NCBI GenBank assembly: GCA_002482535.1
Contig: DLGE01000007.1
Location: forward strand, 129,325-193,324
Direction of reading: 5' to 3'
Length of the DNA stretch: 64,000 nucleotides
DNA from: Peptococcaceae bacterium UBA7702
GTDB taxonomy: Bacteria > Bacillota > Dehalobacteriia > UBA7702
Shown: piece by piece, positions 10,763 to 61,218 of the stretch
Layout of the letters: each line of letters begins with the position of its first letter
Numbering within the stretch: position 1 is the stretch's first letter
Made by a program: the position numbers and the translations under genes
Notes under the pieces: generated by a model
Database searches by the model: none
The model's input: only the letters and a program-made list of their open reading frames with translations
Told to the model about the DNA's origin: nothing

Positions 10763-11111
10763 GGGGATGTATTGGTTTTCGACGGGGGAAGGATTGGTCG
10801 GGTCAGCGAGCCGGCGTTCCATATGGCCGTAAAACTGTGGAACCTAAAATGAAATGACAAACAACAATTAGCTTTCGCTGCTTAATTGCAGCATAACCTC
10901 GTGCGCTCTGGTCCCGCGATGAGCGCAATGGGGTCATTAGGTCGGGATACCGCGTCGCCTTTTTCCGGCGGTAACACGGGAAATTAACGGAATGGTCTTA
11001 TGTGACTTTGTTTATGTAATCATATAAGGCGAGATCGAACATAAACTGCGCTCGGAGAAAACTCGGTGGGTTCTCTTTCGGACAGGGGTTCAACTCCCCT
11101 CATCTCCACCA
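10763..11111 (+). ncRNA. ssrA: tmRNA (ssrA)
   Basis: 5' GGGGATGTATTGGTTTTCGACGGGGG... closely matches the tmRNA 5' end. 3' GGACAGGGGTTCAACTCCCCTCATCTCCACCA matches the T-arm, acceptor stem and CCA. The acceptor stem GGGGATG/CATCTCC contains the G3·U70 wobble. Internal tag ORF ...AAT GAC AAA CAA CAA TTA GCT TTC GCT GCT TAA encodes (A)NDKQQLAFAA. Terminator follows immediately. Confidence 0.9.
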
Positions 11112-11161: not shown

Positions 11162-11508
11162 TAGTACCCATTTCAGCCGATTTTACGGACAAAATGCGGA
11201 TTTTTACGGACGCTGTAGCAGGGGCTGGACAATCAATGCACACGGTAAAGTGATAAAAAGCTCCAGTCACTGATTGGAACTGTACAAGTGATGGGTAGTG
11301 TTCATAACTATAAAACTTGTCCTTTGATAATGCATATGGTAAAATAACGAAAGACTGAACTTAATCAGCCTCCGGACGAGATGCGCCGTACCCGGTTTGA
11401 CGACGACGCACCGAAAGGAGTGCATCAATATATGAGTATGGTTATTCAAATTATCGGCTCGGTCGCCGTTCTTGCGGGCTTCGCACTTGCACAAGCGGGT
11501 GTCCTGAA

Positions 11509-28816: not shown

Positions 28817-30289
28817 TTATTTGGCCCAGGCCTCTCTGGCTTCGGTGATGATGCGGTCCAAGGCTTTGGCGGTACTTTCGTCCAACGCGGCGGGCTTATG
28901 ATTTTTTAGGATATGCTGCATTTCTTCGGTGGCCCGGGCAGCGAGGTCCTGGCCGCCGTCGGCTTTCCACTGTCCGTAGGGACGGCGATCAAAAAGCCGG
29001 GTATAAGACTGTTCCTCCCGCATGTGCTTTAAAGTATGTTCTTCCTGGAGGAAGTGGCCGCCGCAACCCACTTGACGCAGGACATCCACGGCCATGGTTT
29101 CATCGTTTACCGGAATGCCGCCGATGATCTTCCTTACCATCTTGGCAAGTTCGTTATCAATGACAATCTGGCTGAAATCAAGGGTCATGCCCAGGTCGAT
29201 CATGCCCAAACCGTAGATCATGTTGGCGCCTGCCAACGCTGCCATCAGCATGGACATGGTTTTTTCGAGACCGGCCTGTTCATCAAGGCATTTGCTGTCC
29301 GTCTATGAACCCGCGACATAACTGGGAATTTTATAAAACTGCGCCAGGCGGGCCACGGCAGCGCTAAGCATCGCCAATTCAGGACAGCCAATGGTGGCGG
29401 TGGCGGAGCTTAGATCCATGATCGTGGTGGAACTGCCGTAAAGATTCGGTGCGCCTTTTTTCACCGCCTGACCCAAAACGATTCCGGCCAGCACTTCGGC
29501 ATTGTGGGTCACAAGGGTTCCCGCCAATGTTACGGGACTGGTGCCGCCAGCCATGGCCATAGATAACACGGTACAGGGCGCGTTGTTTTCGGCATAGACA
29601 ATGATCGGTTCCGTGGTTTCCGGAGAAATTGTCAGGGGACTGGTGGGACAGACCACCGTGGAGGCTACGGGACGGCGGGCAAAAGCCTCTTTGCCACCGG
29701 CCACGGCGAAAGCCATTTCCATGAATTTTTCCGCCTCCCGGCGGCTGTGGGCGCTTTGGGTACAGTGCTTGGTGGAATGGCTTGCCATCGCCTGATAGCT
29801 GGCCAGATTACCGATTTCAGGGGGAAGATCGCGGCATTCCACCGCCACATCCAAAAGATCGTATTGTGCCAAAGCGTCGACGAGAATCGCCACCCGCACC
29901 TGATCCTCATAACAGGAGGGACGGTATGCCCCGGTATCAGGATCGACGACATTGACGCCTTTGCTGAAATTGCAGAAGTTAACCCTGGTTCCTTCGAGGT
30001 GAAGGTCATTTTTGGGATCGCGCCCCGCCAGCAATACCGAAGCGGGAGTGGAGATGATGGCGTCTTCCACGACGTGGGCCGGGATATAGATCATGTGATT
30101 GGCGGCATCAACGGTACAGCCAACACCCTCATAGTAAGCCTGGGCTTCCCTACAAACGGTTTTGATTCCCGTGTGCCAGAGGACTTCCAAAGTAGCTGCG
30201 TGAATCTGTTCCAGGGAAGCCGGAGAGAGGCCAAAAAGACCGAAACCGCGGATATCCTCCACACCGCTGCTGATCAAACGTCTGCTCAT
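28817..30289 (-). CDS. mttB: trimethylamine:corrinoid methyltransferase MttB, with an in-frame amber (TAG) codon at 29303-29305 (codon 329 of 490), predicted pyrrolysine
   Basis: The listed ORFs 29303-30289 and 28817-29257 are in the same frame and separated only by TAG. The flanking sequence …KIPSYVAGS[TAG]TDSKCLDEQAGLEKTMSMLMAALAGAN… is colinear with …FGLAGATDSKTLDAQAAMEV… in the paralog at 33188, and with the paralog at 30294. TAG to the C-terminus is 161 residues, the same as Pyl334-to-end in 495-aa Methanosarcina MttB. Translationally coupled (AAAGGAG RBS, ATG 4 nt after the TGA) to the upstream paralog. TAA stop. Confidence 0.65.
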
Positions 30290-45768: not shown

Positions 45769-47838
45769 TTATGCTTCTTTGCCTTTTTGGGCATAGAATT
45801 CTTTTGTCACGGCAAAGAAGGTGTCGATATTTTCCCAAGGCGTCAGGGGCGGAATATCGCAGCCGGAGGATATGACGAAATTCGGATGGGAGGTACATTC
45901 CTCCAGTACTTTCAGGGTGGCTGCTGACACAGTTTCAGGCGTCCCCTGGAGGAACACGCCGGCGGGATCGACGTTGCCTAAGACGAGGACATCATCGGGC
46001 ATCTTGCCGACAGCCTCCTTCATATCAATGCCGTTGCCGAAATGATAACCGGCGGCGTTGGACATCAAAATCGTGGGCAGCATCTTCACAGCCTCATTGC
46101 CGCAGTTATGATAGATCACGATAAAATCATCATCGGTCACGGCGTTGACGATGCGCCGGACATAGCGGGCGGAAACTTTCGTCGCCAAGTCCGGCGAAAG
46201 GATCCCGGCCAAAGGCTCGGCAATCACGATGCCATGAGCGCCGGCTTCCTTATAAGCCAAAGCATAATCGATGAGGAATTCCGTGACTTTTTCCAAAACA
46301 GTATGCACCATTTGCGGTTCGGTATAGCAGTAGACCATGATCTCATTGACATCCATCAGGCGGCCGGCCAAAGAGAAGGGACCGATGCAACCGGCGAACA
46401 CCGGCCGGTCGGTGACCAACTTCACGGCCCGGGCCACGGCGGCAATATTGATCCCCGTTCTGCCGCTGCCGATTTCAGGGATTTCCAGGGCTTCCGCTTC
46501 CACCTGGGAGGAAATGATTCTCCCGGTTACCGTAGGCACCTCGTCATCGGAAAAGACGATATGGGAGCCGAAGGCTTCCGCTTCCACGGAAAGATCCATC
46601 TGGCTGACGATGGCGGAGGAATCACAGTGTTCGGAGATCATTTTCATACCGATGGCCTGGAGACGGCTGTCCATAATCAATTCTTTGACCGTGATGCCCA
46701 TCATTTGGATCACCGGGAAGGACAGTACCGGGAAAGGCTTTTTCACAGGGGAGGCAATCATATCGGCGACCCACTGTTTCATATCGCGGCGATATTTCTT
46801 TTCCGTATCTTCATCACCGCGGTTCTTACCTTCGCGATCATATTCCGCGACCGCCGCAAAGAAAGCGTCGATGTTTTCCCAAGGCGTCAGGGGCGGAATG
46901 TCGCAGCCGGAGGATATGACAAAATTCGGATATTTGCCGCATTTTCGCAAAAGGTTTAACGTCGTTTCCCGGACTGTTTCCGGGGTGCCTTGACGGAACA
47001 CGCCGGAGGGATCGACGTTACCGAAGACAACGACGTCTTCCGGCATCTGCGCCATGATCTTTTCCATATCAACGCTGTTGCCAAAATGGAACCCGGCGGC
47101 ATTGGTGGATATCAGAGAAGGAATCATTTTGCCCGCTTCGTTGCCGCAGTTATGATAGATCACAACAAAATGCTCGTCGGTAACGGCTTGGACGATTTTA
47201 CGCACATAATAAGAAGATACGGTTTGCGCCAAGTCCGGGGAAAGGACGCCGGCCAAAGGTTCGGCAATGATGACACCGTTGGCCCCCGCCGCTTTTAAGG
47301 CCAAGATGTAATCGGTGATGAAATCCGTGACTTTGCGCAATACCGTATGAACCATTTGAGGTTCGGTATAGCAATAAATCATGATTTCATTGACATCCAT
47401 CAAGCGGCCGGCCAAAGAGAAGGGACCGATGCAGCCGGCAAAGACAGGGCGGTCGGTGATCCATTCCACGGCTTTTTTGATGGCGTCGATATTGACGCCG
47501 GTACGGCCACAACCTACGGGAGGAACGGTCAGAGCATCGGCTTCCACCTGGGAGGAGATCACTCTTCCCCTGACCGTCGGCACCTCGTCATCGCTGACGA
47601 CGATATTGGAACCAAAGCATTCCGCTTCCACGGAAAGATCCATCAGACTAACGGCGGCGGCGGTATCCACCCGGTCCGCCACCATTTTCATGCCTTTGGC
47701 ATAAGTGTCGCCGTCGGCAATCAGCTCTTTTACGCTAATTCCCATAAGCTGCACGGCGGGAAAGGACAAAACCGGCAAGGGTTTTTTGGTGGGTTTTGCG
47801 ATCTGTTCGCTCATCCATCTCTTCATGTCTCTCTTCAT
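45769..47838 (-). CDS. tandem-fused double MtaA/URO-D-like methyltransferase (two complete ~340-aa domains in one 689-aa protein)
   Basis: Domain 1 runs MKRDMKRWMSEQIAKPTKKPLPVLSFPAVQLMG…PPLTPWENIDAFFAAVAEY. Domain 2 runs RDMKQWVADMIASPVKKPFPVLSFPVIQMMG…PPLTPWENIDTFFAVTKEFY. The halves are about 70% identical. AGGAGG sits 10 nt before the ATG at 47838. Confidence 0.8.
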   Translation of the reverse strand: MKRDMKRWMSEQIAKPTKKPLPVLSFPAVQLMGISVKELIADGDTYAKGMKMVADRVDTAAAVSLMDLSVEAECFGSNIVVSDDEVPTVRGRVISSQVEADALTVPPVGCGRTGVNIDAIKKAVEWITDRPVFAGCIGPFSLAGRLMDVNEIMIYCYTEPQMVHTVLRKVTDFITDYILALKAAGANGVIIAEPLAGVLSPDLAQTVSSYYVRKIVQAVTDEHFVVIYHNCGNEAGKMIPSLISTNAAGFHFGNSVDMEKIMAQMPEDVVVFGNVDPSGVFRQGTPETVRETTLNLLRKCGKYPNFVISSGCDIPPLTPWENIDAFFAAVAEYDREGKNRGDEDTEKKYRRDMKQWVADMIASPVKKPFPVLSFPVIQMMGITVKELIMDSRLQAIGMKMISEHCDSSAIVSQMDLSVEAEAFGSHIVFSDDEVPTVTGRIISSQVEAEALEIPEIGSGRTGINIAAVARAVKLVTDRPVFAGCIGPFSLAGRLMDVNEIMVYCYTEPQMVHTVLEKVTEFLIDYALAYKEAGAHGIVIAEPLAGILSPDLATKVSARYVRRIVNAVTDDDFIVIYHNCGNEAVKMLPTILMSNAAGYHFGNGIDMKEAVGKMPDDVLVLGNVDPAGVFLQGTPETVSAATLKVLEECTSHPNFVISSGCDIPPLTPWENIDTFFAVTKEFYAQKGKEA

Positions 47839-48239
47839 AAACAACATACCTCCTCTTTCTCTTCAATACTCTCATACTCTCTTTTTTTCTCTTTCCGTCT
47901 TTGTAACATCTCTCACTGTTGCATATGATATATAAAAGGCGCTCCAGTTTATTAAGCCGCGCGCCTTCATACCGTTATGTCGAATCCATTGATTGGTCTT
48001 TTCTGTAGTATATCCTTGGTGTCGATTTTTGTCAATCGGTTTCCCTGAGGAACATATGAGATTAAACCATAACAAAGAAATTCAACCAAATGTTTATTCT
48101 AAGAGCGGCTATTTCGACAATCCCTGTGGTGGTCTTTGTTTTCCTTACCCATACCGCAAAACACCGGGATTTTATTTGGTTTTCCGCTAAAATTATGCTA
48201 TAATGCGTTGTATATCCCATAAAAGCAAGGAGTTTCCCC

Positions 48240-50327: not shown

Positions 50328-50358
50328 AAAAAGACTGCCCCGGTGGGGCAGTCTTTTT
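50328..50358. terminator. bidirectional terminator
   Basis: aaaagactgccccggtggggcagtctttttt. Confidence 0.6.
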
Positions 50359-50386
50359 TCACGTAGACTGAAATCCGTTTCTCTAT

Positions 50387-51616
50387 TCATTCCAGGAGCA
50401 GTAGACCGAAATATTTTACGTATTCCGTTTTATCCTTTAGGGTACGCAACGCGTAACCTTGCCCCCGTACGGTGGCAAAAACGTCGATGCCGGCGCTTTC
50501 CATGGAGGGCCGGGTGGCCGTGCATTTTTTAGGCGGAGTCGGTTTTTTGCACTCCGTACAGAGGCTGCAAGGCCCGGCCCAATAAGCGAAGGCTTTGTAA
50601 AAACCGGCTTTGAAGGCTGTTTTTTCGGCTTTCAGCATCATGCGCTGAAAATCAGCGGTGGGGGGCTGTCCCTCAATCAGCAAGGCACTGCTATAATCCG
50701 CTAACTTCGTTCGAGTTTCCGCCTCATCGGGGCTAAAGGGCGGACAATGCCGTTGGCCATAACTGGAACAGCCAAAACGGCAATGATCCCTGACCCAAGA
50801 AGCGGTGACCACTGCGGAAGGGTCTATTTTTTTTACGGAATGAACCGGCAACTGCTTCAAGGCAGCGATCAAGCGATCCTCCGCGGTGAGAGTCAGTTTT
50901 GCCAAAACAGTTTCGTTTCTTGCCATGAAAACGGCGGAATAATCGGCGGAAACCCCCACCGGCGCCGTGCAGAAAAGTTCATGCTCCTCACAGTAAGCGG
51001 CCAGCAGCCCATCATCGAGGATAGGGATATCTTTGCCTTCCAAATGCTTTCGGTAAAGTTCCGCTGCTCCGGATAGGCCGTAATGACCGCGAAAATAGCC
51101 CAGCACCGTGATGATACCCTCGGGAGAACATCGTGGCACAAGGTCATCATCGAGGCTGCCGCCAAAGAGAAAATCATAGGGAGCATCATTTCCGGCTTTG
51201 CCTTCCCCGTTGTTCAAAACTGTTTGCAAGGGAAAATCCTCTGCCAAAAAGTGCTTGCCCTGCACTTCCCCTAAAAGCAGGAGCAACTGCTGCCAAAGGA
51301 AGCTTTCGTTGATCACGGTGAAATCAGCATGATAAGACGGGGAGGATTTCATCAGATAGGCGGCGCTCACGGGAGCATTAAAGACCTGGCCGTCGGCGAT
51401 CACGATGAGACCGGCGTGGTAAAGTACATCCAGGAAACCTTCGGCGGCGACGGGGTCACTGTCGATCATGGCACTGATTTCCTCAAGGGGCCGTCCCTCG
51501 GCGAGGGCGTCAAAAAGTCCCAAAGAAAGCGCTGTTTGCAACAGTGGAAAAACTTCCTTTTGCCCATAGAGGGCGGTGAGGAAATCGTAATCATAATGCT
51601 GAGCATCGGCCTTCAT
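50387..51616 (-). CDS. fusion protein with N-terminal unknown domain and C-terminal DUF2284-like Cys-rich metal-binding domain
   Basis: C-terminus …CRFGCSSYGQRHCPPF…GPCSLCTECKK… Its start overlaps the hyuB stop (ATGA). Confidence 0.5.
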   Translation of the reverse strand: MKADAQHYDYDFLTALYGQKEVFPLLQTALSLGLFDALAEGRPLEEISAMIDSDPVAAEGFLDVLYHAGLIVIADGQVFNAPVSAAYLMKSSPSYHADFTVINESFLWQQLLLLLGEVQGKHFLAEDFPLQTVLNNGEGKAGNDAPYDFLFGGSLDDDLVPRCSPEGIITVLGYFRGHYGLSGAAELYRKHLEGKDIPILDDGLLAAYCEEHELFCTAPVGVSADYSAVFMARNETVLAKLTLTAEDRLIAALKQLPVHSVKKIDPSAVVTASWVRDHCRFGCSSYGQRHCPPFSPDEAETRTKLADYSSALLIEGQPPTADFQRMMLKAEKTAFKAGFYKAFAYWAGPCSLCTECKKPTPPKKCTATRPSMESAGIDVFATVRGQGYALRTLKDKTEYVKYFGLLLLE

Positions 51617-53418
51617 GATTCTCCCCTCCCCTCGGTTTCAGCAGGATGATCCATGGAACCATCGCTCTTTTTGGCTAAGTTGGCGTTTTCCCCTGCTTCC
51701 CGCAGTTTACGAGTTTTTGCCATATCGACACCGCCCTCCGTAAGCGCCACTGCGTAAACGGACTCTGCCGCTTCCTTTGAAACAATGCCGTCAAGGACAT
51801 CTTCGTATACTTTTTGCGGATCACGTTTTTTCGGGTCCCCCCAACCGCCGCCGCCGGAGGAAAACAGCAAAACCTTATCGCCCTTCGCCGCTTCTCTCGG
51901 TGCCTCCTTGCCGTCAAAAGCGTCGGCAATGCCGTGATGAACAAAATAGCCGCCGTTGAAGCTGCCGTCACCGCCGCCGTTGCATCCTTGAGGCGCGAAT
52001 TTCAGCCCGTTACCAAAATTCACAATATGACTGCTTTCCGCGTAGAGCTCAAAGCCGTAGCGCATCCCGGCGCCGCCCCGGTATTCTCCTGCCCCGGCGG
52101 TATCCGCGGTCATTTCGTGGTAAAGCGTTATGTGAGGGTACTGCACCTCGTTGGACTCAATATCCGGTGTTTTTACGCCGCCGAAATTGGACATCGCCGC
52201 CATATAGGCCTTGCCGTCATACCCCTGCATGGCACCGCCGCTCCCCAGGGAGCAGAAGGAAAAGCCCACATAATAGCGGTTGTTTCGGGGATCGACGCCG
52301 AAAAACGTCGGCCCGTTATAGCTGGCATAGCCGGCGCAGACACGGTCGGGAACCGCTTTGTTCAGGGCCATAAAGATCGTGGTGATGATTTCACTGGCCG
52401 GCGTAAGGGTGCAAAAGGTCATCGGCGCCGGCTCCTTTGGATTGACCAGGGAACCTTCGGGCAGTACCACATCGATACAGCGGAAAGCGCCGCCGTTACG
52501 GGGAATATCAGCGCCGAGGAACCAGAGGGCGGCAATCCCCGCGGCGGTGGTCGCCGTCACCACAGAGGTATTGATGAAACCTGTTACCTGGCGGTGGGTA
52601 CCACTGAAATCAATCAACATGGCTTCACCGACAATTCTAACGGTCACCGCGATTTTCACCGGCGCTTCCTGAAAACCGTCGTCGTCCACGTAGCCAACGG
52701 CATGATAGTTGCCGTCAGGCACTTCGCCGATGCGCTTTCTGGTCAGTCGTTCCGTTTGTGTCAAAATCTCCTTCACCGCTTTTTTCACCGTGGCGGCGGT
52801 ATACCGTTGAATCATCTCCCCGAGGCGTTTCACAGCAATGCGGTTTGCGCCCATCTGGGCCAAAAGATCGCTTTGGAGCATCCCGGGATTCCTGGTGTTG
52901 ATCAAAATCAACCGGAATACTTCTTCATCCATTTTGTGCCGCCTCACCAAGCGCGTAGGTGGAATGCGCAGCCCTTCCTGGAAAATCTCGGTGGCACGAG
53001 GGTTATAGCTCCCTGCCGTAGAGCCGCCGATATCACCGTGATGCGCCCGGCTAACGCAGAAGAACAGCAGCTCTCCTTCGAAAAACACCGGCGTGATGAT
53101 ACCGATATCGGGGAGATGGTTGCCGCCGTCATAGGGATCGTTGATGATGAAAACATCGCCGTCGGCAATCTCTCCGTTATAATGCTCCAACACGGCCTTT
53201 ACGCTAAAGGAACCTGCCGTGGCCAGGATGGGAATACCACTGAGCTGGGAAACAAGCTCCCCTTGGCCGTCACAGATACAACAGGCAAAATCACAGGCCT
53301 CGGCAAAAATCGGCGAGTGGGCGGCGTGCTCCAAGGTCAGACCCATTTCTCCGGCAATGGAATCGAGGCGGTTGGCGATCACCGTCCGCAGGATGATCTC
53401 CTCACTGTCCTTGACCAT
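51613..53418 (-). CDS. hyuB: hydantoinase B / oxoprolinase-family protein (HyuB)
   Basis: MVKDSEEIILRTVIANRLDSIAGEMGLTLEHAAHSPIFAEACDFACCICD… is typical of HyuB. AAGGAGGG sits 8 nt before the ATG at 53418 (the listed 53478 start lacks an RBS). Overlaps the hyuA end by 17 nt. Confidence 0.8.
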   Translation of the reverse strand: MVKDSEEIILRTVIANRLDSIAGEMGLTLEHAAHSPIFAEACDFACCICDGQGELVSQLSGIPILATAGSFSVKAVLEHYNGEIADGDVFIINDPYDGGNHLPDIGIITPVFFEGELLFFCVSRAHHGDIGGSTAGSYNPRATEIFQEGLRIPPTRLVRRHKMDEEVFRLILINTRNPGMLQSDLLAQMGANRIAVKRLGEMIQRYTAATVKKAVKEILTQTERLTRKRIGEVPDGNYHAVGYVDDDGFQEAPVKIAVTVRIVGEAMLIDFSGTHRQVTGFINTSVVTATTAAGIAALWFLGADIPRNGGAFRCIDVVLPEGSLVNPKEPAPMTFCTLTPASEIITTIFMALNKAVPDRVCAGYASYNGPTFFGVDPRNNRYYVGFSFCSLGSGGAMQGYDGKAYMAAMSNFGGVKTPDIESNEVQYPHITLYHEMTADTAGAGEYRGGAGMRYGFELYAESSHIVNFGNGLKFAPQGCNGGGDGSFNGGYFVHHGIADAFDGKEAPREAAKGDKVLLFSSGGGGWGDPKKRDPQKVYEDVLDGIVSKEAAESVYAVALTEGGVDMAKTRKLREAGENANLAKKSDGSMDHPAETEGRGES

Positions 53419-55501
53419 ATTCTTTCCCTCCTTTCCTTGGGCTTTCTTGGCTTTTTCTGATGGAACAGACACCGTCATGGATCACCGCAGTTTCAAAACC
53501 TTTAGGGAGCAGCATGGTCGTGTCGTTAAAAGCGATCAGGGCGGGACCGGTCAAGACTTCCTGGAGATCGCAGCTGTGGTAAACCGGCACAGAGATCATG
53601 CCACTTAAGCCAAAGGGTTCACCGGCGACCTTTGCTGCTCCCGGCCCTTGCCTTTCTGTCTCAAAAGGAAAGAGACGGTGCTTGACGCCCTTTTCGTAAC
53701 ATTCCAGTTGAAAATGGACGATCTCCCAGGCCTTCTCCGGTTCGGCGTAGCCGTAGAGAGCTTCGTGTTTCCTGTAAAAAGCTGCGGCAAGGGAAGCGGG
53801 ATCCGTCAAATAAGCAGCCTCCCAGACCACGGGAATCTCGTGATGCTGACCGACGGCGCGCATTTCCGCTGTGACGCGAAACGCGATATTTTTTGGAGCA
53901 ACGCCGAGACGGCGAAGCTCCGCCGCTCCCGCAGCCTTCATTCCTTGCAGTCTCGTTTCAATGGCCGACGCGTCAAAATGATCCTGCTCCATAAAGAAAC
54001 TGCGGGAAAAATCGCAGCGGCGGGCAGCCCCCAGCATACCCCAGGCGCAAAACACCGGGGAGGTCACGGGAAAGAGCACTTCCCGCATGTTCAGGGTTTC
54101 CATGACATTGGCGGCGAACAGCGGAAAAGCGCCGCCGGCGCTGATCAGAGTATAGTCCCGGCTATCCTGGCCTTTGGCCACGGTAACGAGGCGGAGGGCG
54201 TCGGCCGTCATTTCCACGGCGACCCGATAGATCATATCCGCTGCCGCCACAGTACCGATGCCTAAGGGAGCAGCCACTTTTTCTTTCATCAGCGCCGCGG
54301 CCTTATCATGGCACAGTTGCAGCTTGCCCCCGAGGAATTGCCTTTGGGGAAAAAGCCCCAGCAGCAAGAGGGCGTCGGTAATGGTAATTTCTTTGCCACC
54401 CTGGCCGTAACAGACCGGTCCGGGTTGGGAACCGGCGGATTCGGGACCGATCAGCAAGCGGCCCCCCTCATCCACCCGAATGATACTGCCGCCGCCGGCG
54501 CCGACGGAATGAATGTTGACCATGGGCAGAGACAAGGGATAACCATCGATCTCCCCGCCGGGAACCAACTTCTGCCCTTCACCATCTAAAACGTGGACGT
54601 CGAAGCTGGTGCCGCCCATATCCGCTAAAATTGTCCGCTTCTTCGCGCAGAGTCCGCTCAACCCGTCATTGCCGCAAGCGCCGCCGGCCGGACCGGACAT
54701 CAGTGTTTTTACGGCGAGCTCCGACTGGGCGTCGATGTCACTGACACCGCCACTGTTCATCATGATGTGGATCGGCTTTTCCCAACCGTAGGCCGTAAGC
54801 CTTGTTTTTAAGGCGGCGAGGTAATCCTTTAAAAGCGGCGAGAGATAGGCATTGAGCACCGTGGTGACCGTGCGCTCGTACTCCCTGATCCGCGGCGCCA
54901 CATCGGAAGAAAGTGTCACGAAGACTCCGGGCAGTTCCCGACGGATGATTTCCGCTGTCTTTCTTTCGTGCTCCGGATTTAGAAAGGAAAACAGATAACA
55001 GACGGCAATGGCTTTTACTTTGGCCCTGCGGCATACTTCACAGGCTTTGATCACGCTTTCTTCCTCTAATTCCCGGATCACCTCGCCTTTATAATCCATG
55101 CGTTGGGCGATACCCAAGCGCAATCGCCGGGGAATGAGCACCGGCGGGGTCAACGCCCGCAAATCCCATTGGTTTTTCAGTTGCGCGCGGCGAATTTCCA
55201 GTGCGTCACGAAAACCCTCTGTTGTAAGGAGCGCCGTTTTAACGCCCTTCTTTTCCAGAAGAGCGTTCAGCGCCAGGGTAGTTCCATAAACAATCTGTTC
55301 CGTTTCCTTTAACAAATCTGGAAGTGTAAAGCCGAAAGCAGCCGCCAGTTCCGTCAAACCGGCAATGATGCTTTCAACAGGGTCTTCCTGATTTGTGGGA
55401 TATTTGACAAAATGCCGTTCATCGGGATGCTCCTCCCCGATTCGTTCGGCGGTAAAATCCGTGAAGGTACCGCCGGTATCGATCGCTATTTTGATCATCA
55501 T
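53402..55501 (-). CDS. hyuA: hydantoinase A / oxoprolinase-family protein (HyuA; ATP-dependent)
   Basis: MMIKIAIDTGGTFTDFTAE… (actin-like ATPase N-terminus of hydantoinase A), 699 aa. Confidence 0.85.
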   Translation of the reverse strand: MMIKIAIDTGGTFTDFTAERIGEEHPDERHFVKYPTNQEDPVESIIAGLTELAAAFGFTLPDLLKETEQIVYGTTLALNALLEKKGVKTALLTTEGFRDALEIRRAQLKNQWDLRALTPPVLIPRRLRLGIAQRMDYKGEVIRELEEESVIKACEVCRRAKVKAIAVCYLFSFLNPEHERKTAEIIRRELPGVFVTLSSDVAPRIREYERTVTTVLNAYLSPLLKDYLAALKTRLTAYGWEKPIHIMMNSGGVSDIDAQSELAVKTLMSGPAGGACGNDGLSGLCAKKRTILADMGGTSFDVHVLDGEGQKLVPGGEIDGYPLSLPMVNIHSVGAGGGSIIRVDEGGRLLIGPESAGSQPGPVCYGQGGKEITITDALLLLGLFPQRQFLGGKLQLCHDKAAALMKEKVAAPLGIGTVAAADMIYRVAVEMTADALRLVTVAKGQDSRDYTLISAGGAFPLFAANVMETLNMREVLFPVTSPVFCAWGMLGAARRCDFSRSFFMEQDHFDASAIETRLQGMKAAGAAELRRLGVAPKNIAFRVTAEMRAVGQHHEIPVVWEAAYLTDPASLAAAFYRKHEALYGYAEPEKAWEIVHFQLECYEKGVKHRLFPFETERQGPGAAKVAGEPFGLSGMISVPVYHSCDLQEVLTGPALIAFNDTTMLLPKGFETAVIHDGVCSIRKSQESPRKGGKEYGQGQ

Positions 55502-55514
55502 TTCACCTTCTGCC

Positions 55515-56888
55515 TTATTTCACGTATCGATGCAGCCGTTTCACCGCTTCCGCTACCCTCTCATCCATCTCGATTTTAGGCGAAAAGCCCGAGAGAGGCT
55601 TGGTGGCATCGATCCCCATTTTCGAAGTGCGGCTCAGTTCATCGGTGGAGGGATCCAAGGTGACCCCCATGCCGAGGTGCTGGGGCAGGATGGTTACGCC
55701 ATAGTCAGCCTGAAGCCGCGTGGCCAAGGCCCAGAGAACCTCCTCCTCATTGAAAACATCGACGTCCTCATCGACGACGATCACCATTTTGATGTTGTGA
55801 TCCACGGCAAAAGCCGCGTAGATTGCCTGTTGAGGCTGGCCTTCGGCGATTTTTTTCATGGAGATGTAGCAATGAAAGAGGCCGCAAGCGGAAAAGGGAG
55901 CGTGGACGGCTTTGATGTTGGGCAGCGTCTGATGGAGGGCGTTCAATACATCCCCTTCCCGCTGGATGGCGACGACAGTGATGTGTTCGCTGCTCATCCC
56001 CGGAGTGATATCGTGGTAAAAAGCATTTTCCCGGTAGCGTATGGCGTTTACCTGAAACACATTTTCCGTACTGCGGAAACAGGCGTAATTGGTGAATTCG
56101 GCGAAGGGACCTTCCTTTTCACGGACACCGGCAAGAATTTCCCCCTCCAGAACGATTTCGGCGTAGGCGGGTACCTGGAGATCCGAAGTAACACAATCCG
56201 CCACCTGGAGGGGTTCCCCGAAAAGCCCGGCGATGGCGCCGTATTTACCTTGGTCATAGGGGATGAGGGCCATAGAACCAAGGGCAATGTTGGGGTGTAC
56301 GCCGATGACCACGGCGGCTTTGAGATTTTCGCCCCGCTCTTCACTGCGGCGGAAATACTCCCAAAGGCGCTGGCGGGAATGGAGGGAGATCCCCAGCTTG
56401 TTTTTGCCCTTTAACTGCATACGGTGAAACCCCAAGGTCTCTACGCCGCTCTCGGGATCCCGGGCCACACAGAGGCCGCTGGTCACATAGGGACCGGCGT
56501 CGATGGGAAAATGGGTGGGGATCGGCAGATCGTAAAGATTGACCTCATCCCCGGTGAGACAATGGGCGTCACAGGGCGGGTTTTCGGTAATTTTCACTTC
56601 CTCAATGCGGTTTTTGATGCGGTTGGCATAAGCCGCTGCCACTTCGTCGGCGCTAACGCCAAGGCCCTCGGCAAACCGCTCGCGACAGCCAAGGATGTTG
56701 GTAACCACGGGAAAAGCGCTGTTTTCCACCTGATCGAAGACGACAATGGGATGACGGCGCTCTTTTTCCAGATCCATCATCAAGGTGGTCATTTCATAAT
56801 CTCTTTTGACGGATTCTGCGACATGGCGAAGGTTCCCCGCGGCCTTGGCCCGGTTTAAAAAATCTCTTAGATCCTGACTCTGACTCAT
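55515..56888 (-). CDS. UbiD-family (prFMN-dependent) decarboxylase/carboxylase
   Basis: MSQSQDLRDFLNRAKAAGNLRHVAESVKRDYEMTTLMMDLEKERRHPIVVFDQVENSAFPVVTNILG… is colinear with UbiD. AAGGAG sits 7 nt before the ATG at 56888 (the listed 56981 start overlaps the upstream gene). Confidence 0.85.
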   Translation of the reverse strand: MSQSQDLRDFLNRAKAAGNLRHVAESVKRDYEMTTLMMDLEKERRHPIVVFDQVENSAFPVVTNILGCRERFAEGLGVSADEVAAAYANRIKNRIEEVKITENPPCDAHCLTGDEVNLYDLPIPTHFPIDAGPYVTSGLCVARDPESGVETLGFHRMQLKGKNKLGISLHSRQRLWEYFRRSEERGENLKAAVVIGVHPNIALGSMALIPYDQGKYGAIAGLFGEPLQVADCVTSDLQVPAYAEIVLEGEILAGVREKEGPFAEFTNYACFRSTENVFQVNAIRYRENAFYHDITPGMSSEHITVVAIQREGDVLNALHQTLPNIKAVHAPFSACGLFHCYISMKKIAEGQPQQAIYAAFAVDHNIKMVIVVDEDVDVFNEEEVLWALATRLQADYGVTILPQHLGMGVTLDPSTDELSRTSKMGIDATKPLSGFSPKIEMDERVAEAVKRLHRYVK

Positions 56889-56908: not shown

Positions 56909-57475
56909 TTATCGAGTCAATCCCGATTTCTTCAACGCGTCGTAGGCCAATTTGGTCAGCACCGTGGAGCAGGGCCAACAAACGGCAATCACGATCAACG
57001 TTTCCACCAGGGCGACATTCACCGGTAGATTATAGATCAGGATGAGCCCCACGAAAACAATGGCGTTGCCCAAAACATTGCAGAAAAATTGGGCGAGAAT
57101 ATGATGGCTCCATTTTTCCATGGAATACCGTTTGGCCACCAGGGAAACGCCGAGGGAACCCAAGGCATTGGCAAAAACAAAGGCCAGCCAAAGAGGGCTG
57201 TACCAAATGGAGATCAGCGCCTCCACTTCCCCGGCGATCAACCCCGCGGGCTGACGGTAAAGCAAGGCGATGATGCCGGTAAAAAAGGCCCAGCAGGTGC
57301 CGTTGATCAGATACATCCCGGCTTTACCCGTGGGCAGCAGGTTATCGATGAACCCCGTGGCTTGACAGGCGATGACAAAGACGATGCCCAAGATCACGGA
57401 GCCCACCAGGGCTTTGGTGTCGGTTCTGAAAAAGCTGTTGTGCTGGGCAAGTTCTTTTGGTTGAGACATGGTCAT
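56909..57475 (-). CDS. ECF-transporter substrate-specific (S) component (CbrT/ThiW-like size, 188 aa, 5-6 TM)
   Basis: Small hydrophobic protein directly downstream of EcfT and EcfA-A. Given the B12-riboswitch context, a corrinoid-type S component is plausible. Confidence 0.55.
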   Translation of the reverse strand: MTMSQPKELAQHNSFFRTDTKALVGSVILGIVFVIACQATGFIDNLLPTGKAGMYLINGTCWAFFTGIIALLYRQPAGLIAGEVEALISIWYSPLWLAFVFANALGSLGVSLVAKRYSMEKWSHHILAQFFCNVLGNAIVFVGLILIYNLPVNVALVETLIVIAVCWPCSTVLTKLAYDALKKSGLTR

Positions 57476-57499
57476 TTCCTCCTAAAATTTACTTAATAC

Positions 57500-58255
57500 T
57501 TAAATATGAATATAGAAATTTAAAACAATAAAGGCAATGGGCAGCAAAAAGCAGCAGCCGATTTCGGCGGCGGTGAGATGCAGCTCCTTGGAGAAGGTCC
57601 GCCTTTCACTTTTACCGAAGCCCCTCAACTCCATGGAAAGGGCGATTTCTGAAGTGCGGCGGAGGGCCCGGTAGAGAAAGGGCATCACGGTGAGGGGCAT
57701 CATTTTAACGCGGTTTACCAGGCCGGCGGCAGCCACGCCGCGGACTGCCTGGCTATCGCTGATTGACGCGTACTCCTCCTTGAGCAGCGGCAAAAACCGC
57801 GCCGCCATCGTGATCAGCATCGCGTAACGGTAAGGCACACGAAAGCCGATGAGCATCAGCACGGCGTCCTCCGACGGCGTCCAGGTCATCATCTGAATCG
57901 CTGCCAAAGAAACGGCGACGGTGCGCAAGAGGCCAAGGAGTGCGGCGGGGAGGGCGCCGCTGTAGACTTCGAGGATTCCCCACTGCCAGATCACCACACC
58001 TTCCCTGTTAAAGAGCAACTGCATCAGAAAGAGCTGTGAGGCGACGATGAGGAAAAGCAGCAGCAAAATGCTGTACTTTTTCACACTCCCCGTCAAAAAC
58101 AGATCGGTAAAAAACACCAGGGCAATGATAATGGCCTGGGTAGCCAAAGAAGGAGACAGCAGCGCGGTGAAGAGCAATGTGAGGCACCAAATCAATTTCA
58201 GGCGGGGGTCAAAAATATCAGACCGCTTTCTCTTCATGTTCATCTTCATGTTCAT
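57500..58255 (-). CDS. ecfT: ECF-transporter transmembrane (T) component EcfT/CbiQ-family
   Basis: …LKLIWCLTLLFTALL… matches EcfT-type hydrophobic topology. Confidence 0.75.
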   Translation of the reverse strand: MNMKMNMKRKRSDIFDPRLKLIWCLTLLFTALLSPSLATQAIIIALVFFTDLFLTGSVKKYSILLLLFLIVASQLFLMQLLFNREGVVIWQWGILEVYSGALPAALLGLLRTVAVSLAAIQMMTWTPSEDAVLMLIGFRVPYRYAMLITMAARFLPLLKEEYASISDSQAVRGVAAAGLVNRVKMMPLTVMPFLYRALRRTSEIALSMELRGFGKSERRTFSKELHLTAAEIGCCFLLPIAFIVLNFYIHI

Positions 58256-59720
58256 GTCTTTCTTCCTCCCCTCCCTGCCAAAGGGACGCGGCGACGGTTT
58301 CGAAATCCCTCTGTTCATAGTCGGCGCTGAGCCGCTGGCGATCCAGGAGCAGAATGCGGTCGGCATAAGCCAACACCGCTCCCGGATCGTGGCTGACGAG
58401 GATCACGGTGCCGCCGTCGGCGCGGAAGTCCGCCAGCAGATCCATGACCAGACGGCAGTCTTCCTCTTGAAGACCGGCGGTGGGTTCGTCGGCGATGATG
58501 ATTTCCGGATCGTGGATTAGCGCCGAGGCCGCCGCCAACTTTTGGCGCTGACCCCGGCTTAAACACTGGGGATGACAGTCCCCGTAGGCGGCAAGACCCA
58601 CCTTCTTTAAGATTTTTTCGACCTTCGCGGTTTTTTCCGCTTCTTTGAGAGGCAAATTCTTTAAGGCAAAAGCGGCTTCCTTTTTCACCGTATCGGCAAA
58701 AATCTGCAAGTCGGGGTTTTGAAAGAGAAAACCGATTTTGGCCCTCAAAGCAAAGGCCGATTTTTTCGTCATGGCTTTGCCGAAGACCTCGATTTTCCCC
58801 CGGGTCGGCAAGAGCAGCCCCTCCATGAGCTTGAGCAGGGTGGTTTTGCCGCTGCCGTTGACCCCCATGATGGCCAAAAATTCGCCGCGGCGCACCTGAA
58901 AGGTGATTTCCTCACAGCCTAAGATACCGCCTCGATAGACATAAGAGACATTTTCCAGGGAAAGCACGGTTTCTGCTGTTTTAACCGCCGGCCTCCGCGC
59001 CGGCAGAGGCAGGGGCGGCGACGGGTAATCCCTGCCCCGGTAAACCTTTTTGAGCGTCCCCTTCTCCAGCACCAGGACACGGTCGGCAAAATCAGCCAGG
59101 TTAAGACCGTGATCCGCCGCGACAATCACGGTAACGCCCTTTTCCCGATGGATTTTGCGAATCAGCGCGTACAGCTTCAGCTTACCCTGGCGGTCGAGCT
59201 CCGCCCCGGGCTGGTCAAGGACGAGAACCGGCGTAGAGAGCGCCAAAACCCCGGCAAAGACGAGACGTTGGGCCTGTCCCCCGGAAAGACTCGTCGTCTT
59301 TCTATTTTCCAAACCCTGCAAACCGGCAAAGGAAAGCGCCTCCTTACTGCGGGAAGCGATCTCCTCCCGGGAATAACCCAAATTGGCCAAACCAAAGGCC
59401 ACCTCCGCTTCGACAGTGACGCTGACGATCTGATTTTGCGGTTCCTGAAACATATAGCCAAGGTATTGACAGATTGCCGCCAGGGGCAGCTCCATGATGT
59501 CTTTCCCCATCAGAGTGACGCTGCCGTCCAACAAGCCGCCCTCATATTTCATCGCCGCGCCGGTGAGGGTATGCAGCAAGAGGCTCTTGCCGGCCCCCGA
59601 CGCGCCGGTCACAGCGATAAACTCGCCCTTTTTTACGGTCAGGGCGATGTTTTTGAGGGCCGCTCCGGCCTGATCGGGAAAAGTAAGTGATTTGATGTTA
59701 ATTTGCAGTGCCGTATCCAT
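58218..59720 (-). CDS. ECF-transporter ATPase with duplicated ABC domains (EcfA-EcfA' fusion, YkoD-like)
   Basis: Two Walker A motifs (GASGAGKS and GVNGSGKTT) and two signature motifs (LSGGQAQR and LSRGQRQK), 500 aa. Confidence 0.85.
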   Translation of the reverse strand: MDTALQINIKSLTFPDQAGAALKNIALTVKKGEFIAVTGASGAGKSLLLHTLTGAAMKYEGGLLDGSVTLMGKDIMELPLAAICQYLGYMFQEPQNQIVSVTVEAEVAFGLANLGYSREEIASRSKEALSFAGLQGLENRKTTSLSGGQAQRLVFAGVLALSTPVLVLDQPGAELDRQGKLKLYALIRKIHREKGVTVIVAADHGLNLADFADRVLVLEKGTLKKVYRGRDYPSPPLPLPARRPAVKTAETVLSLENVSYVYRGGILGCEEITFQVRRGEFLAIMGVNGSGKTTLLKLMEGLLLPTRGKIEVFGKAMTKKSAFALRAKIGFLFQNPDLQIFADTVKKEAAFALKNLPLKEAEKTAKVEKILKKVGLAAYGDCHPQCLSRGQRQKLAAASALIHDPEIIIADEPTAGLQEEDCRLVMDLLADFRADGGTVILVSHDPGAVLAYADRILLLDRQRLSADYEQRDFETVAASLWQGGEEERHEHEDEHEEKAV

Positions 59721-59734
59721 AAAACCCCCGTATA

Positions 59735-59960
59735 AAATAAAAAAAGTTCCAGCAGATCGGTGATACCGATCAACTGAAACTTTACCGTTGTTCCACGTGA
59801 ACTCTTTTTATGGCAGGTCTTCTGACTCACAGTTTTACCCGATGGCCGCGCCTTCCCGGCTGCCCGGTGGCAAAATGCGGTTCTCAACAACTGTATACAG
59901 CGGTGGGTCCGTTCAGGTTTCGCACCTGATTCCCTATTCTCCCCCTTGGGGCACCATAAA
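59735..59960 (-). promoter_or_regulatory. cobalamin (B12) riboswitch with terminator-type expression platform, 5' of the ECF–UbiD–HyuAB operon
   Basis: Minus-strand sequence reads GGTGCC…AGGGAA-TCAGGTGCGAAACCTGAACGG-ACCCACCGCTGTA (B12-box-like) …GCCACCGGGCAGCCGGGAAGGCGCGGCC… GAGTCAGAAGACCTGCC. All hallmark blocks are in canonical order. It is followed by the GATCGGTATCACCGATC hairpin, a U-run (TTTTTTATTTT) and the EcfA start. Confidence 0.7.
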
Positions 59961-60027
59961 AATCATATATAACTGCGGTCATTATACAAAATAACAACAA
60001 TCCTGTCAAGGGAAAATCTTTGGCTTT

Positions 60028-60486: not shown

Positions 60487-61218
60487 ATGCCCGATCATCT
60501 CGCCAGTTTTCAACTGGATTTCCTGACGCCGGATCTTTTCCAGAAGATCGTCAAAAAAGCTGTGGCCGAGGGAAGCCGCGTCAGGGGCAACCACGGCAAC
60601 TATATCAATTTTCATATGGGCGATATCCTGCTCATTGTCCGCACCGCTTACGACCCGGAAAAAGGTCTTGATTACATCACGGGATTTGATTCCCATATCA
60701 AGGGCTGCTGCGTCTGGGACTGCGTGATAGAGCGGGAAGAAGAAAACGAAGATCCCACAGTTAAGACTGTTTTCATCAAAAGCAACGGCAAGGAGCTGCC
60801 TTTACCCCTAATCAACGGCGATATCCTCCCCGCTTACAGCAAGGGTGAAAGCTTTCCGGCGCAAATCGCGGCCTATCCCGAGGAAATTTCCTTTCAGCGG
60901 GAAGATACCGGCGGCGCCATTGTGGCAAAGGACGGTCAGACCGTGTCGATCTGCGGCAAAGCTTTGGGGTTTCGAGAGGGCCAAACCGTCTATATGGGCG
61001 GTGTGATGACGCGCTTTCTCATCTGCCTCCTAAAGACGGATCACGGCGAAATCGAGTTGGCCTTCCCCGGAAACCTTGTCGATGAAAAAGAGGAGGAGGA
61101 GAACCTGCTCTGCCCCGGTTCCTACGTCCGCTGTCAAGGAACGCTGACGGGAAACCCGGCCATCTACGTAAGGGAAAAAGGCATCCCCGGAAAAGAAAGA
61201 GAAGAAATAAAAAAATGA
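60487..61218 (+). CDS. hypothetical protein (243 aa)
   Basis: RBS AAAGGAGAAG. No recognised domain. Confidence 0.45.
   Translation: MPDHLASFQLDFLTPDLFQKIVKKAVAEGSRVRGNHGNYINFHMGDILLIVRTAYDPEKGLDYITGFDSHIKGCCVWDCVIEREEENEDPTVKTVFIKSNGKELPLPLINGDILPAYSKGESFPAQIAAYPEEISFQREDTGGAIVAKDGQTVSICGKALGFREGQTVYMGGVMTRFLICLLKTDHGEIELAFPGNLVDEKEEEENLLCPGSYVRCQGTLTGNPAIYVREKGIPGKEREEIKK

Follow-up and report, generated by a model that had tools for sequence, protein, structure and literature searches.

A cobalamin riboswitch-headed operon joining an ECF transporter, a UbiD-family decarboxylase and a hydantoinase-type enzyme in a Peptococcaceae bacterium

The riboswitch-headed operon

Peptococcaceae bacterium UBA7702 carries, within the 64,000-nucleotide stretch of contig DLGE01000007.1 analysed here (hereafter the window, to which all coordinates refer), a cobalamin riboswitch followed by seven genes on the minus strand. 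These encode a fused ATPase (EcfA-A'), the coupling protein EcfT and a predicted S component, which together constitute an energy-coupling factor (ECF) transporter, followed by a UbiD-family decarboxylase, the hydantoinase-type subunits HyuA and HyuB, and a protein with a DUF2284 domain. Gene calls in the operon were checked with Pfam and NCBIfam, and the features are given below in the order of transcription.

59981-60009, minus strand: sigma-70-type promoter, TTGACA, 17-nt spacer, TATAAT (hexamer matches 12 of 12)
59795-59973, minus strand: cobalamin riboswitch aptamer, RF00174 (110.3 bits)
59735-59783, minus strand: expression platform with intrinsic terminator (hairpin and U-run)
58218-59720, minus strand: fused EcfA-A' double ATPase, 500 aa (two ABC_tran domains; TIGR04520, TIGR04521)
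57500-58255, minus strand: EcfT transmembrane coupling component, 251 aa (CbiQ Pfam family, 95 bits)
56909-57469, minus strand: predicted ECF S component, 186 aa (fold of the AlphaFold2 model; an alternative start at 57475 gives 188 aa)
55515-56888, minus strand: UbiD-family decarboxylase, dependent on prenylated flavin mononucleotide (prFMN), 457 aa (UbiD_N, UbiD, UbiD_C; TIGR00148)
53402-55501, minus strand: HyuA, hydantoinase/oxoprolinase A subunit, ATP-binding (Hydant_A_N, Hydantoinase_A)
51613-53418, minus strand: HyuB, hydantoinase/oxoprolinase B subunit (Hydantoinase_B, 515 bits)
50387-51616, minus strand: predicted BzaC-like pseudo-methyltransferase with DUF2284, 409 aa (DUF2284 118 bits; BzaC-type homology)
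50328-50359, both strands: bidirectional intrinsic terminator (AAAAAGACTGCCCCGGTGGGGCAGTCTTTTTT), identified from sequence

The cobalamin riboswitch is a real, full-length aptamer. An Rfam scan of the whole window gives a match to RF00174 that covers model positions 1-189 of 189 with 110.3 bits (E 9e-27), where the gathering score is 31.5, and no other RNA family is seen between 44 and 64 kb, even at E 0.1. The promoter lies directly upstream of the aptamer (60009-59981), and its position would place the transcript start just 5' of it. Between the aptamer and the ecfA ATG at 59720 there is a hairpin with a T-run at approximately 59783-59735 (z-score -3.56); the terminator hairpin (AAAGUUUCAGUUGAUCGG...CCGAUCUGCUGGAACUUU) is followed by a U-run and is situated about 15 nt ahead of the start codon, with a stem energy of -22.2 kcal/mol as computed for L001, a locus identical to the window. 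Because a hairpin and U-run stand between aptamer and start codon, the leader has the anatomy of a transcription-terminating riboswitch. A hairpin and T-run are found 3' of the riboswitch in all 45 of 45 related instances, with stem sequences that differ among them. An earlier note, made from the letters of this DNA, had described both a complete aptamer 5' of the ECF genes and an accompanying terminator, and these results bear out both.

The genes that follow are closely spaced. The coordinates of EcfA-A' and EcfT overlap (58218-59720 and 57500-58255), and from EcfT to the S gene there are 24 nt to the first ATG, or about 30 nt if the S gene is read from its preferred start at 57469. The S and UbiD genes are 20 nt apart with an AAGGAG ribosome-binding site, both as previously described. 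Overlapping junctions had been reported through hyuA, hyuB and the DUF2284 gene; this holds for HyuA/HyuB (17 nt) and for HyuB/DUF2284 (4 nt, ATGA), whereas UbiD and HyuA are separated by a gap of 13 nt. Candidate internal promoters that might serve UbiD separately from the ECF genes reach only 9 of 12 matches, and four were found where 5.5 are expected from shuffled sequences; no intergenic terminator was found between the ECF genes and UbiD. Separate transcription of the two is rejected, as the sequence holds no credible internal promoter or terminator. At the far end, a strong bidirectional terminator (50328-50359) parts the last gene from a convergent FMN-reductase gene. The riboswitch-headed genes form a single, compact, terminator-free operon, in agreement with the earlier note, which had placed the ECF, UbiD, HyuAB and DUF2284 genes together. 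When transcription does not terminate in the leader, one transcript of about 9.6 kb would span the ECF importer, UbiD, HyuAB and the BzaC-like gene.

Conservation of the module among relatives

A scan for UbiD orthologues, using one genome per species, returned 55 loci, 38 of which are bacterial with a UbiD at least 60% identical to that of the window (60-88%). Riboswitches were detected with Rfam on seven loci and with an nhmmer profile on all of them. The 38 loci derive from Peptococcaceae metagenome-assembled genomes (MAGs) and from Dehalobacter, Acetobacterium, Thermincola, Desulfosporosinus, Desulfitobacterium, Desulfomonilaceae, Geosporobacter, Alkalibaculum and Anaerosolibacter. A riboswitch heads the cluster in 35 of the 38, that is in 35 of the 35 with upstream DNA; the other three begin less than 100 nt ahead of the first cluster gene, at a contig edge. 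The first gene 3' of the riboswitch varies, being EcfA-A' at 17 loci, UbiD at 11, S at four and HyuA at three. The enzyme and transporter units are split in three loci (L019, L047 and L025), each unit having its own riboswitch, and in D. lacus the ECF unit is on another contig (L060), again with its own riboswitch. Because a riboswitch heads the cluster whichever gene comes first, and split units each have one, UbiD and HyuAB are predicted to be genuine members of the B12 regulon in these bacteria and not passengers behind a transporter. The earlier note had held that the proposal would fail if UbiD and HyuAB were never linked to B12 elements in relatives; the UbiD-first and HyuA-first loci provide just such linkage.

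The order ECF(A-A',T,S)-UbiD-HyuA-HyuB is found in most loci, HyuA-HyuB-S-UbiD-EcfAA'-EcfT in three, and UbiD-HyuA-HyuB alone in many Desulfosporosinus. EcfA/A' and EcfT are encoded together with the S gene, with synteny in 25 loci. The S gene adjoins UbiD in 23 of the 38 bacterial loci, lying immediately 5' of it, and has this position in almost every locus that has both genes. In one gut Firmicute MAG (L051, 8787-9967) two tandem paralogous S genes, 70% and 73% identical to that of the window, precede UbiD, which suggests from sequence that they may serve two related substrates.

Four of the 55 loci belong to Methanobacteriaceae or Methanosphaera. In gut and rumen methanogens of these groups (L009-L012 and L058) the arrangement is UbiD-HyuA-HyuB(-LpdD), with 72-76% identity to the Firmicute genes, and these copies apparently arose by bacteria-to-archaea transfer, from Firmicutes, of the enzyme half of the module. 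More distant UbiD and HyuAB genes that have no riboswitch lie beside a xanthine-dehydrogenase-family molybdenum hydroxylase, a short-chain dehydrogenase/reductase (SDR) and a TRAP/TAXI transporter in a Nitrospinota genome (L043), and beside an SDR in L046, while at L039 a UbiD 59% identical to that of the window occurs with ubiX, a urocanate-reductase-like flavoprotein and a histidine-ammonia-lyase-family gene. By analogy, the contexts at these three loci would fit the processing of N-heteroaromatic acids and lactams.

Two observations concern the flanks of the module. Divergent from the riboswitch promoter is a 243-aa open reading frame (ORF; 60487-61218, plus strand) with no Pfam or NCBIfam match, which is kept at the same position in L002, L003 and L051 (58-88% identity). 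In Dehalobacter a second cobalamin riboswitch (L057, 19774-19915; L007, 19761-19902) lies about 0.8 kb downstream of the module and precedes genes for a zinc-type alcohol dehydrogenase and a Glycos_transf_3 protein (a TrpD or nucleoside-phosphorylase-like phosphoribosyltransferase), a pair that is probably B12-regulated and has no obvious cobamide role.

The transporter and the enzymes

EcfA-A' exceeds the cut-offs of TIGR04520 (356 bits, cut-off 315) and TIGR04521 (341 bits, cut-off 330). With its ATPases, EcfT, S gene and S fold the transporter of the window belongs to ECF group I, in which the module is dedicated to one S component. The S protein itself has no Pfam or NCBIfam match, and a phmmer search against all PDB chains returned nothing at E up to 10; assignment to a known S family is rejected on these empty searches. 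An AlphaFold2 model built with 29 homologues (pLDDT, the predicted local distance difference test, 87) has six helices, and the top PDB matches in Foldseek are ECF S components: YkoE (5EDL), BioY (4DVE), ThiT, RibU and FolT, with template modelling scores of 0.56-0.66 for 5EDL, 4DVE and FolT (5JSZ). On the strength of the model, the membrane protein encoded at 56909-57469 is most probably an ECF S component of an uncurated and very small family, which forms 102 clusters when grouped at 90% identity; a profile search of 1.84 billion proteins gave 48 representatives at the 50% level. Its remote members likewise lack Pfam families, except for one weak ECF_trnsprt match.

CbrTUV and ECF-CbrT are B12-riboswitch-controlled ECF systems for corrinoids. 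These, and the CblT-CblS system of alpha-ribazole salvage, resemble the window transporter in being of ECF type, under B12-riboswitch control and concerned with import of trace cobamide parts. The S protein of the window differs from them in that its sequence matches neither solved S components nor Pfam and NCBIfam models, and in being coupled to a decarboxylase gene and not to a kinase or to nothing. No similarity to the characterised CbrT was seen in the phmmer search of PDB chains (E up to 10), among which is its structure, and no corrinoid-transporter chain is among the top 50 fold matches of the S model. CblS and CblT are mentioned in PMC6461909.

The UbiD protein matches UbiD_N, UbiD and UbiD_C in Pfam (58, 202 and 105 bits) and TIGR00148 (347 bits, cut-off 245). 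Its nearest solved structures are HmfF (6H6V, 284 bits) and AnInD (7P9Q, 180 bits), which act on the heteroaromatic acids 2,5-furandicarboxylate and indole-3-carboxylate respectively, whereas solved phenolic-acid and protocatechuate decarboxylases score 145-152 bits. Among NCBIfam subfamilies the best match is the VdcC-like model for hydroxyarylic acid decarboxylase subunit C (NF041204), at 281 bits well under the cut-off of 650, and the phenylphosphate carboxylase models TIGR02724 and TIGR02723 match weakly (142 and 108 bits; cut-offs 469 and 565). The motif EGPFAE aligns with EGPFGE of HmfF and EGPYGD of Escherichia coli UbiD and is kept in 115 of 120 clade members, and the Arg in xTLGFHR aligns with NVSIHR and NLGIYR, so that the catalytic Glu-x4-Glu loop and Arg, which we take to be E277, E282 and R173 in Fdc1 numbering, are predicted to be retained. 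Where HmfF, AnInD and E. coli UbiD have Asn (N168 of Fdc1, which we take to be the Asn ligand of the prFMN-anchoring Mn2+), the window protein has Thr in the SGVETLGFHR region, as have nearly all of the 79 clade members, of 120, in which the motif was located. The Thr-for-Asn and EGPFAE-for-EGPFGE differences may mark a cofactor-binding variant specific to this B12-linked clade, distinguishing it from the HmfF/HmfG and LpdBCD/VdcBCD systems.

The earlier note had suggested looking elsewhere in the genome for ubiX, the prFMN synthase gene; neither ubiX nor lpdD was found in the 64-kb window. In relatives, hyuB is followed in the same operon by ubiX (Flavoprotein family, 13 loci) and by the gene for the prFMN chaperone LpdD (PF21758, 16 loci), and in L003, L006, L051 and L057, with UbiD identities of 81-86%, both lie between hyuB and the BzaC-like gene. 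It is likely that ubiX and lpdD were lost or relocated from the window operon, and that its UbiD must rely on unlinked genes. Because the operons of relatives carry ubiX and LpdD, the comparison argues that UbiD is an active prFMN enzyme. In the HmfF/HmfG and LpdBCD/VdcBCD systems a UbiD catalytic subunit is likewise found with UbiX and a small prFMN chaperone, as in the orthologues of the window operon, but those systems are catabolic and have neither riboswitch control nor an ECF importer or Hyu partner.

In HyuA and HyuB the Hyu domains are divided between adjacent genes (Hydant_A_N 155, Hydantoinase_A 256 and Hydantoinase_B 515 bits). HyuA is nearest to caprolactamase, oxoprolinase and N-methylhydantoinase; among solved structures caprolactamase (6YRA) scores 374 bits and N-methylhydantoinase 327 bits, with acetophenone and acetone carboxylases lower (289 and 205 bits). 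CapAB, 5-oxoprolinase and N-methylhydantoinase have the same two-subunit A/B architecture and are the best sequence matches for HyuAB. Relative to the CapAB equivalogs, however, the window proteins score far lower (NF050156/NF050157: HyuA 495 and HyuB 363 bits, cut-offs 1000), and both the UbiD pairing and the control by B12 are novel. The acetophenone carboxylase models are matched still less closely (ApcC 303 and ApcD 164 bits, against 1500 for each), and the operon has no extra gene for an accessory subunit of acetone or acetophenone carboxylase.

The product of the last gene had been called a DUF2284 metal-binding protein; the DUF2284 domain is present (118 bits), but this is not a bare DUF2284 protein. 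The Cys-rich DUF2284 domain is preceded by an O-methyltransferase dimerisation domain, weak in Pfam, and a reduced Rossmann domain. Methyltransf_2 is not detected by Pfam in the window protein, whose dimerisation and DUF2284 domains align with BzaC-type proteins (identities of 29% in the dimerisation domain and 41% in the C-terminal 245 aa), and a model of the protein has the family-2 O-methyltransferase fold. Outside its own clade of about 410-aa proteins the window protein is most closely related to longer proteins (510-520 aa) that combine dimerisation, Methyltransf_2 and DUF2284 domains; JGI names one of them 5-hydroxybenzimidazole methyltransferase. The window protein and every other member of the 410-aa clade lack approximately 105 residues, among them the S-adenosylmethionine (SAM) motif I ILDVGAGSGA.

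A homologue in Thermincola potens, P0285, is encoded between cobT and a gene matching the BzaD model (748 bits, cut-off 450), in a bza operon that has two ThiC-like genes and cobS upstream of P0285 and stands behind a cobalamin riboswitch. Because of this position between cobT and bzaD in an operon for anaerobic benzimidazole synthesis (a pathway summarised in PMC7617358), we take P0285 to be BzaC. A second relative with the O-methyltransferase and DUF2284 domains adjoins a BzaD-like gene. The last gene of the window operon is therefore predicted to encode a paralogue of BzaC (5-hydroxybenzimidazole methyltransferase) that lacks the SAM-binding core, a pseudo-methyltransferase, and this homology would be the only direct evolutionary link of the module to lower-ligand chemistry. 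A bza operon (riboswitch, bzaA/B or bzaF, cobT, bzaC, bzaD, bzaE) supplies the lower ligand and shares with the module a cobalamin riboswitch, in T. potens, and a homologous O-methyltransferase-DUF2284 protein. The module in contrast lacks cobT, a ThiC-like radical SAM enzyme and B12-dependent radical SAM methylases, its BzaC-like protein has no SAM core, and its catalytic genes are UbiD and HyuAB, served by a dedicated importer. In T. potens (L062, 3805-14371) the riboswitch is followed by a gene for a transporter of the purine/cytosine-permease family (Transp_cyt_pur) and then by bzaA-bzaB-cobS-cobT-bzaC-bzaD-bzaE; this transporter may import a base.

Elsewhere in the window, a PYLIS_3 element (29206-29305, minus strand, 71.5 bits; ORFs 29303-30289) marks a pyrrolysine-containing mttB, for trimethylamine methyltransferase, and Dimeth_Pyl genes lie just outside the window on the identical contig (L001). 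The organism is probably a pyrrolysine-using, methylamine-utilising anaerobe of Clostridia/Peptococcaceae type with a heavy demand for corrinoids. A 692-aa protein (45769-47847, minus strand) has two fused tandem methylcobamide methyltransferase domains of the MtaA/URO-D type. A guanidine-III riboswitch (11350-11412, plus strand, 44.7 bits) lies within 240 nt downstream of a tmRNA gene (10763-11111, plus strand, 165.8 bits).

A possible role in cobamide supply

Published proteomics of Dehalobacter restrictus provides some insight into regulation of the module. By gene order and annotation we infer that the cluster of strain PER-K23 corresponds to Dehre_2006-1998. It is not among the five cobalamin riboswitch operons reported for this organism (Rupakula 2015, PMC4285132), of which it would be a sixth riboswitch-headed cluster, and proteins of the whole cluster are contained in the proteome of Table S4 of that paper. 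The values there are log10 differences for high relative to low cyanocobalamin (250 vs 10 ug/L B12), the scale having been checked against Table S5. The S protein Dehre_2004 has a value of -1.53, that is 34-fold lower at high B12, and UbiX (Dehre_2000) a value of -0.83, or 6.7-fold lower (PMC4285132), which is partial support for repression by B12.

We tentatively favour the proposal that the operon directs cobalamin-repressed uptake of a trace exogenous heteroaromatic compound and its conversion to a building block of cobamides, the most probable product being a benzimidazole-type base for the lower ligand, or an immediate precursor of one. We do so because ECF transporters import precursors of cofactors at trace levels and B12 riboswitches shut off functions in cobamide supply, and because the relatives of the enzymes use heteroaromatic acids or lactams and the accessory gene is BzaC-derived. 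In this model the corrinoid-bound aptamer would favour the terminator hairpin, and transcription would stop before ecfA. Under corrinoid limitation the high-affinity, low-capacity ECF/S importer would take up a scarce compound, either a lactam or an N- (or O-) heteroaromatic carboxylic acid. HyuAB would spend ATP to open or activate a cyclic amide, by analogy with caprolactamase and oxoprolinase, and UbiD would strip a ring-bound carboxyl with prFMN from UbiX and LpdD, which are unlinked here and in-operon in relatives; the HyuAB and UbiD steps may fall in either order. The methyltransferase-dead BzaC paralogue might then bind or pass on a hydroxybenzimidazole-like product. The earlier note had itself speculated on a cobamide precursor or lower ligand, an idea that gains indirect support from the identification of the last gene as a probable BzaC paralogue, although not in the phenol-specific version considered below. 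It is possible, if doubtful, that the module is a third lower-ligand route in anaerobes beside BluB and Bza: a salvage route induced by B12 starvation, with a private ECF importer, a Hyu hydrolase, a prFMN-dependent UbiD and a dead BzaC accessory protein.

A number of observations weigh against the proposed role in building-block supply. The module would be tied to cobamide chemistry solely by its regulation and by the BzaC homology; of the 38 loci, only about 6 have the BzaC-like gene, and the full-length family is not always found in bza operons, since a Formimonas copy stands alone. Neither the window nor the 10 kb around any module locus has a bza, cobT or cobS gene, and cob or cbi genes are likewise not co-located with the module over that distance. 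The Desulfomonilaceae have S-UbiD-EcfAA'-EcfT with no adjacent HyuAB, the archaeal loci were found to have neither riboswitch nor ECF transporter, and the window has neither ubiX nor lpdD. Because the genus Thermincola has both the module (in T. ferriacetica MAGs) and a complete bza operon (in T. potens), the module does not simply replace de novo synthesis. Finally, in D. restrictus UbiD, HyuA, HyuB, EcfA-A' and the DUF2284 protein change by log10 values of only -0.03 to -0.09, at most 1.2-fold (PMC4285132); control of the enzymes may be weak, or may be masked by stable proteins or internal promoters.

That these D. restrictus enzymes are abundant at all B12 levels would agree with a B12-sparing bypass, in which the module imports and converts a metabolite normally made via a corrinoid enzyme, in the manner of metE or nrdDG, and would for this reason be shut down by ample B12. 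B12 riboswitches classically repress B12-independent alternatives, and the module enzymes have no known role in cobamide synthesis. We nevertheless consider this unlikely, as the BzaC paralogue points to lower-ligand chemistry and ECF transporters serve trace cofactor precursors and not bulk metabolites; moreover, we know of no corrinoid-dependent reaction with a product obtainable by UbiD or Hyu.

Uptake and remodelling of corrinoids is likewise improbable. In such a scheme the ECF/S transporter would import corrinoids, HyuAB would be an ATP-dependent corrinoid amidase (for CbiZ-like removal of the nucleotide loop or for lactam repair) and UbiD would process the released ligand. There are precedents in the riboswitch-controlled corrinoid transporters mentioned above, HyuAB enzymes are ATP-dependent amide hydrolases, and carriers such as D. 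restrictus depend heavily on corrinoid salvage (PMC4285132). The S protein, however, is without sequence similarity to solved chains and has no corrinoid transporter among its closest fold matches, the active sites of Hyu and UbiD enzymes take small molecules, and the pairing of S with UbiD is maintained where HyuAB is absent (L031-33 and L037). To our knowledge UbiD needs a carboxyl on an sp2 carbon, and corrinoids have none.

A less likely scheme again is one of ATP-dependent carboxylation, in which a heterocycle with a phenolic or enolic group, for instance 5-hydroxybenzimidazole, would be phosphorylated or activated by HyuAB and then carboxylated by UbiD to give a modified lower ligand. 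Its model would be phenylphosphate synthase and phenylphosphate carboxylase, where an ATP-dependent activating enzyme is teamed with a UbiD-family (de)carboxylase, although there the activating enzyme is of another family, the system is catabolic with no riboswitch or ECF transporter, and the matches of the window UbiD to the carboxylase models are weak. UbiD enzymes are reversible, phosphorylation of the substrate is known from Hyu homologues, the acetone and acetophenone carboxylases, and the BzaC-like protein is expected to bind hydroxybenzimidazole. Set against this, HyuA scores higher with hydrolases (374 and 327 bits) than with carboxylases (289 and 205 bits), the accessory subunits are missing and the Desulfomonilaceae modules have no HyuAB, and we know of no carboxylated lower ligand.

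The suggestion of the earlier note that UbiD makes phenol from imported 4-hydroxybenzoate for Sporomusa-type phenolyl cobamides is very improbable, and is disfavoured because of the affinities of UbiD and the taxonomic distribution of arsAB: notwithstanding the VdcC-like best subfamily match and the LpdD-type chaperone that accompanies hydroxyarylic acid decarboxylases, the VdcC score is far under its cut-off (281 vs 650 bits), HmfF (284 bits) and AnInD are nearer than the phenolic-acid and protocatechuate decarboxylases (145-152 bits), HyuAB is given no role, and the arsAB genes for phenolic-ligand attachment and phenolyl cobamides are essentially confined to Negativicutes (PMC6461909), to which none of the 38 carrier genomes belongs.

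In full-text searches we found no paper joining a cobalamin riboswitch or cobamide with UbiD, or a riboswitch and B12 with hydantoinase, earlier mention in subscription papers being possible. Each of the component families is known; the conserved combination seems not to have been described before, and the same applies to its B12 control, its private S family and the accessory protein derived from BzaC. Genes under B12 riboswitches have repeatedly revealed missing steps of cobamide metabolism, and this module, which occurs in acetogens, organohalide respirers, sulfate reducers and gut Clostridia and, as an apparently horizontally transferred copy, in gut methanogens, combines a transporter family of its own with two kinds of enzyme that had never been connected with cobamides. 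Among predicted cobamide producers, 42% have no known lower-ligand genes (PMC6461909). If the module does supply a lower ligand or building block, predictions of the cobamide made by its carriers would need revision and the compound imported would be a new cross-fed metabolite in anaerobic communities. It would also account for the way in which Dehalobacter and similar corrinoid-dependent bioremediation strains manage under limitation, and would give a first physiological role to the UbiD-HyuAB pairing and to DUF2284/BzaC-like proteins.

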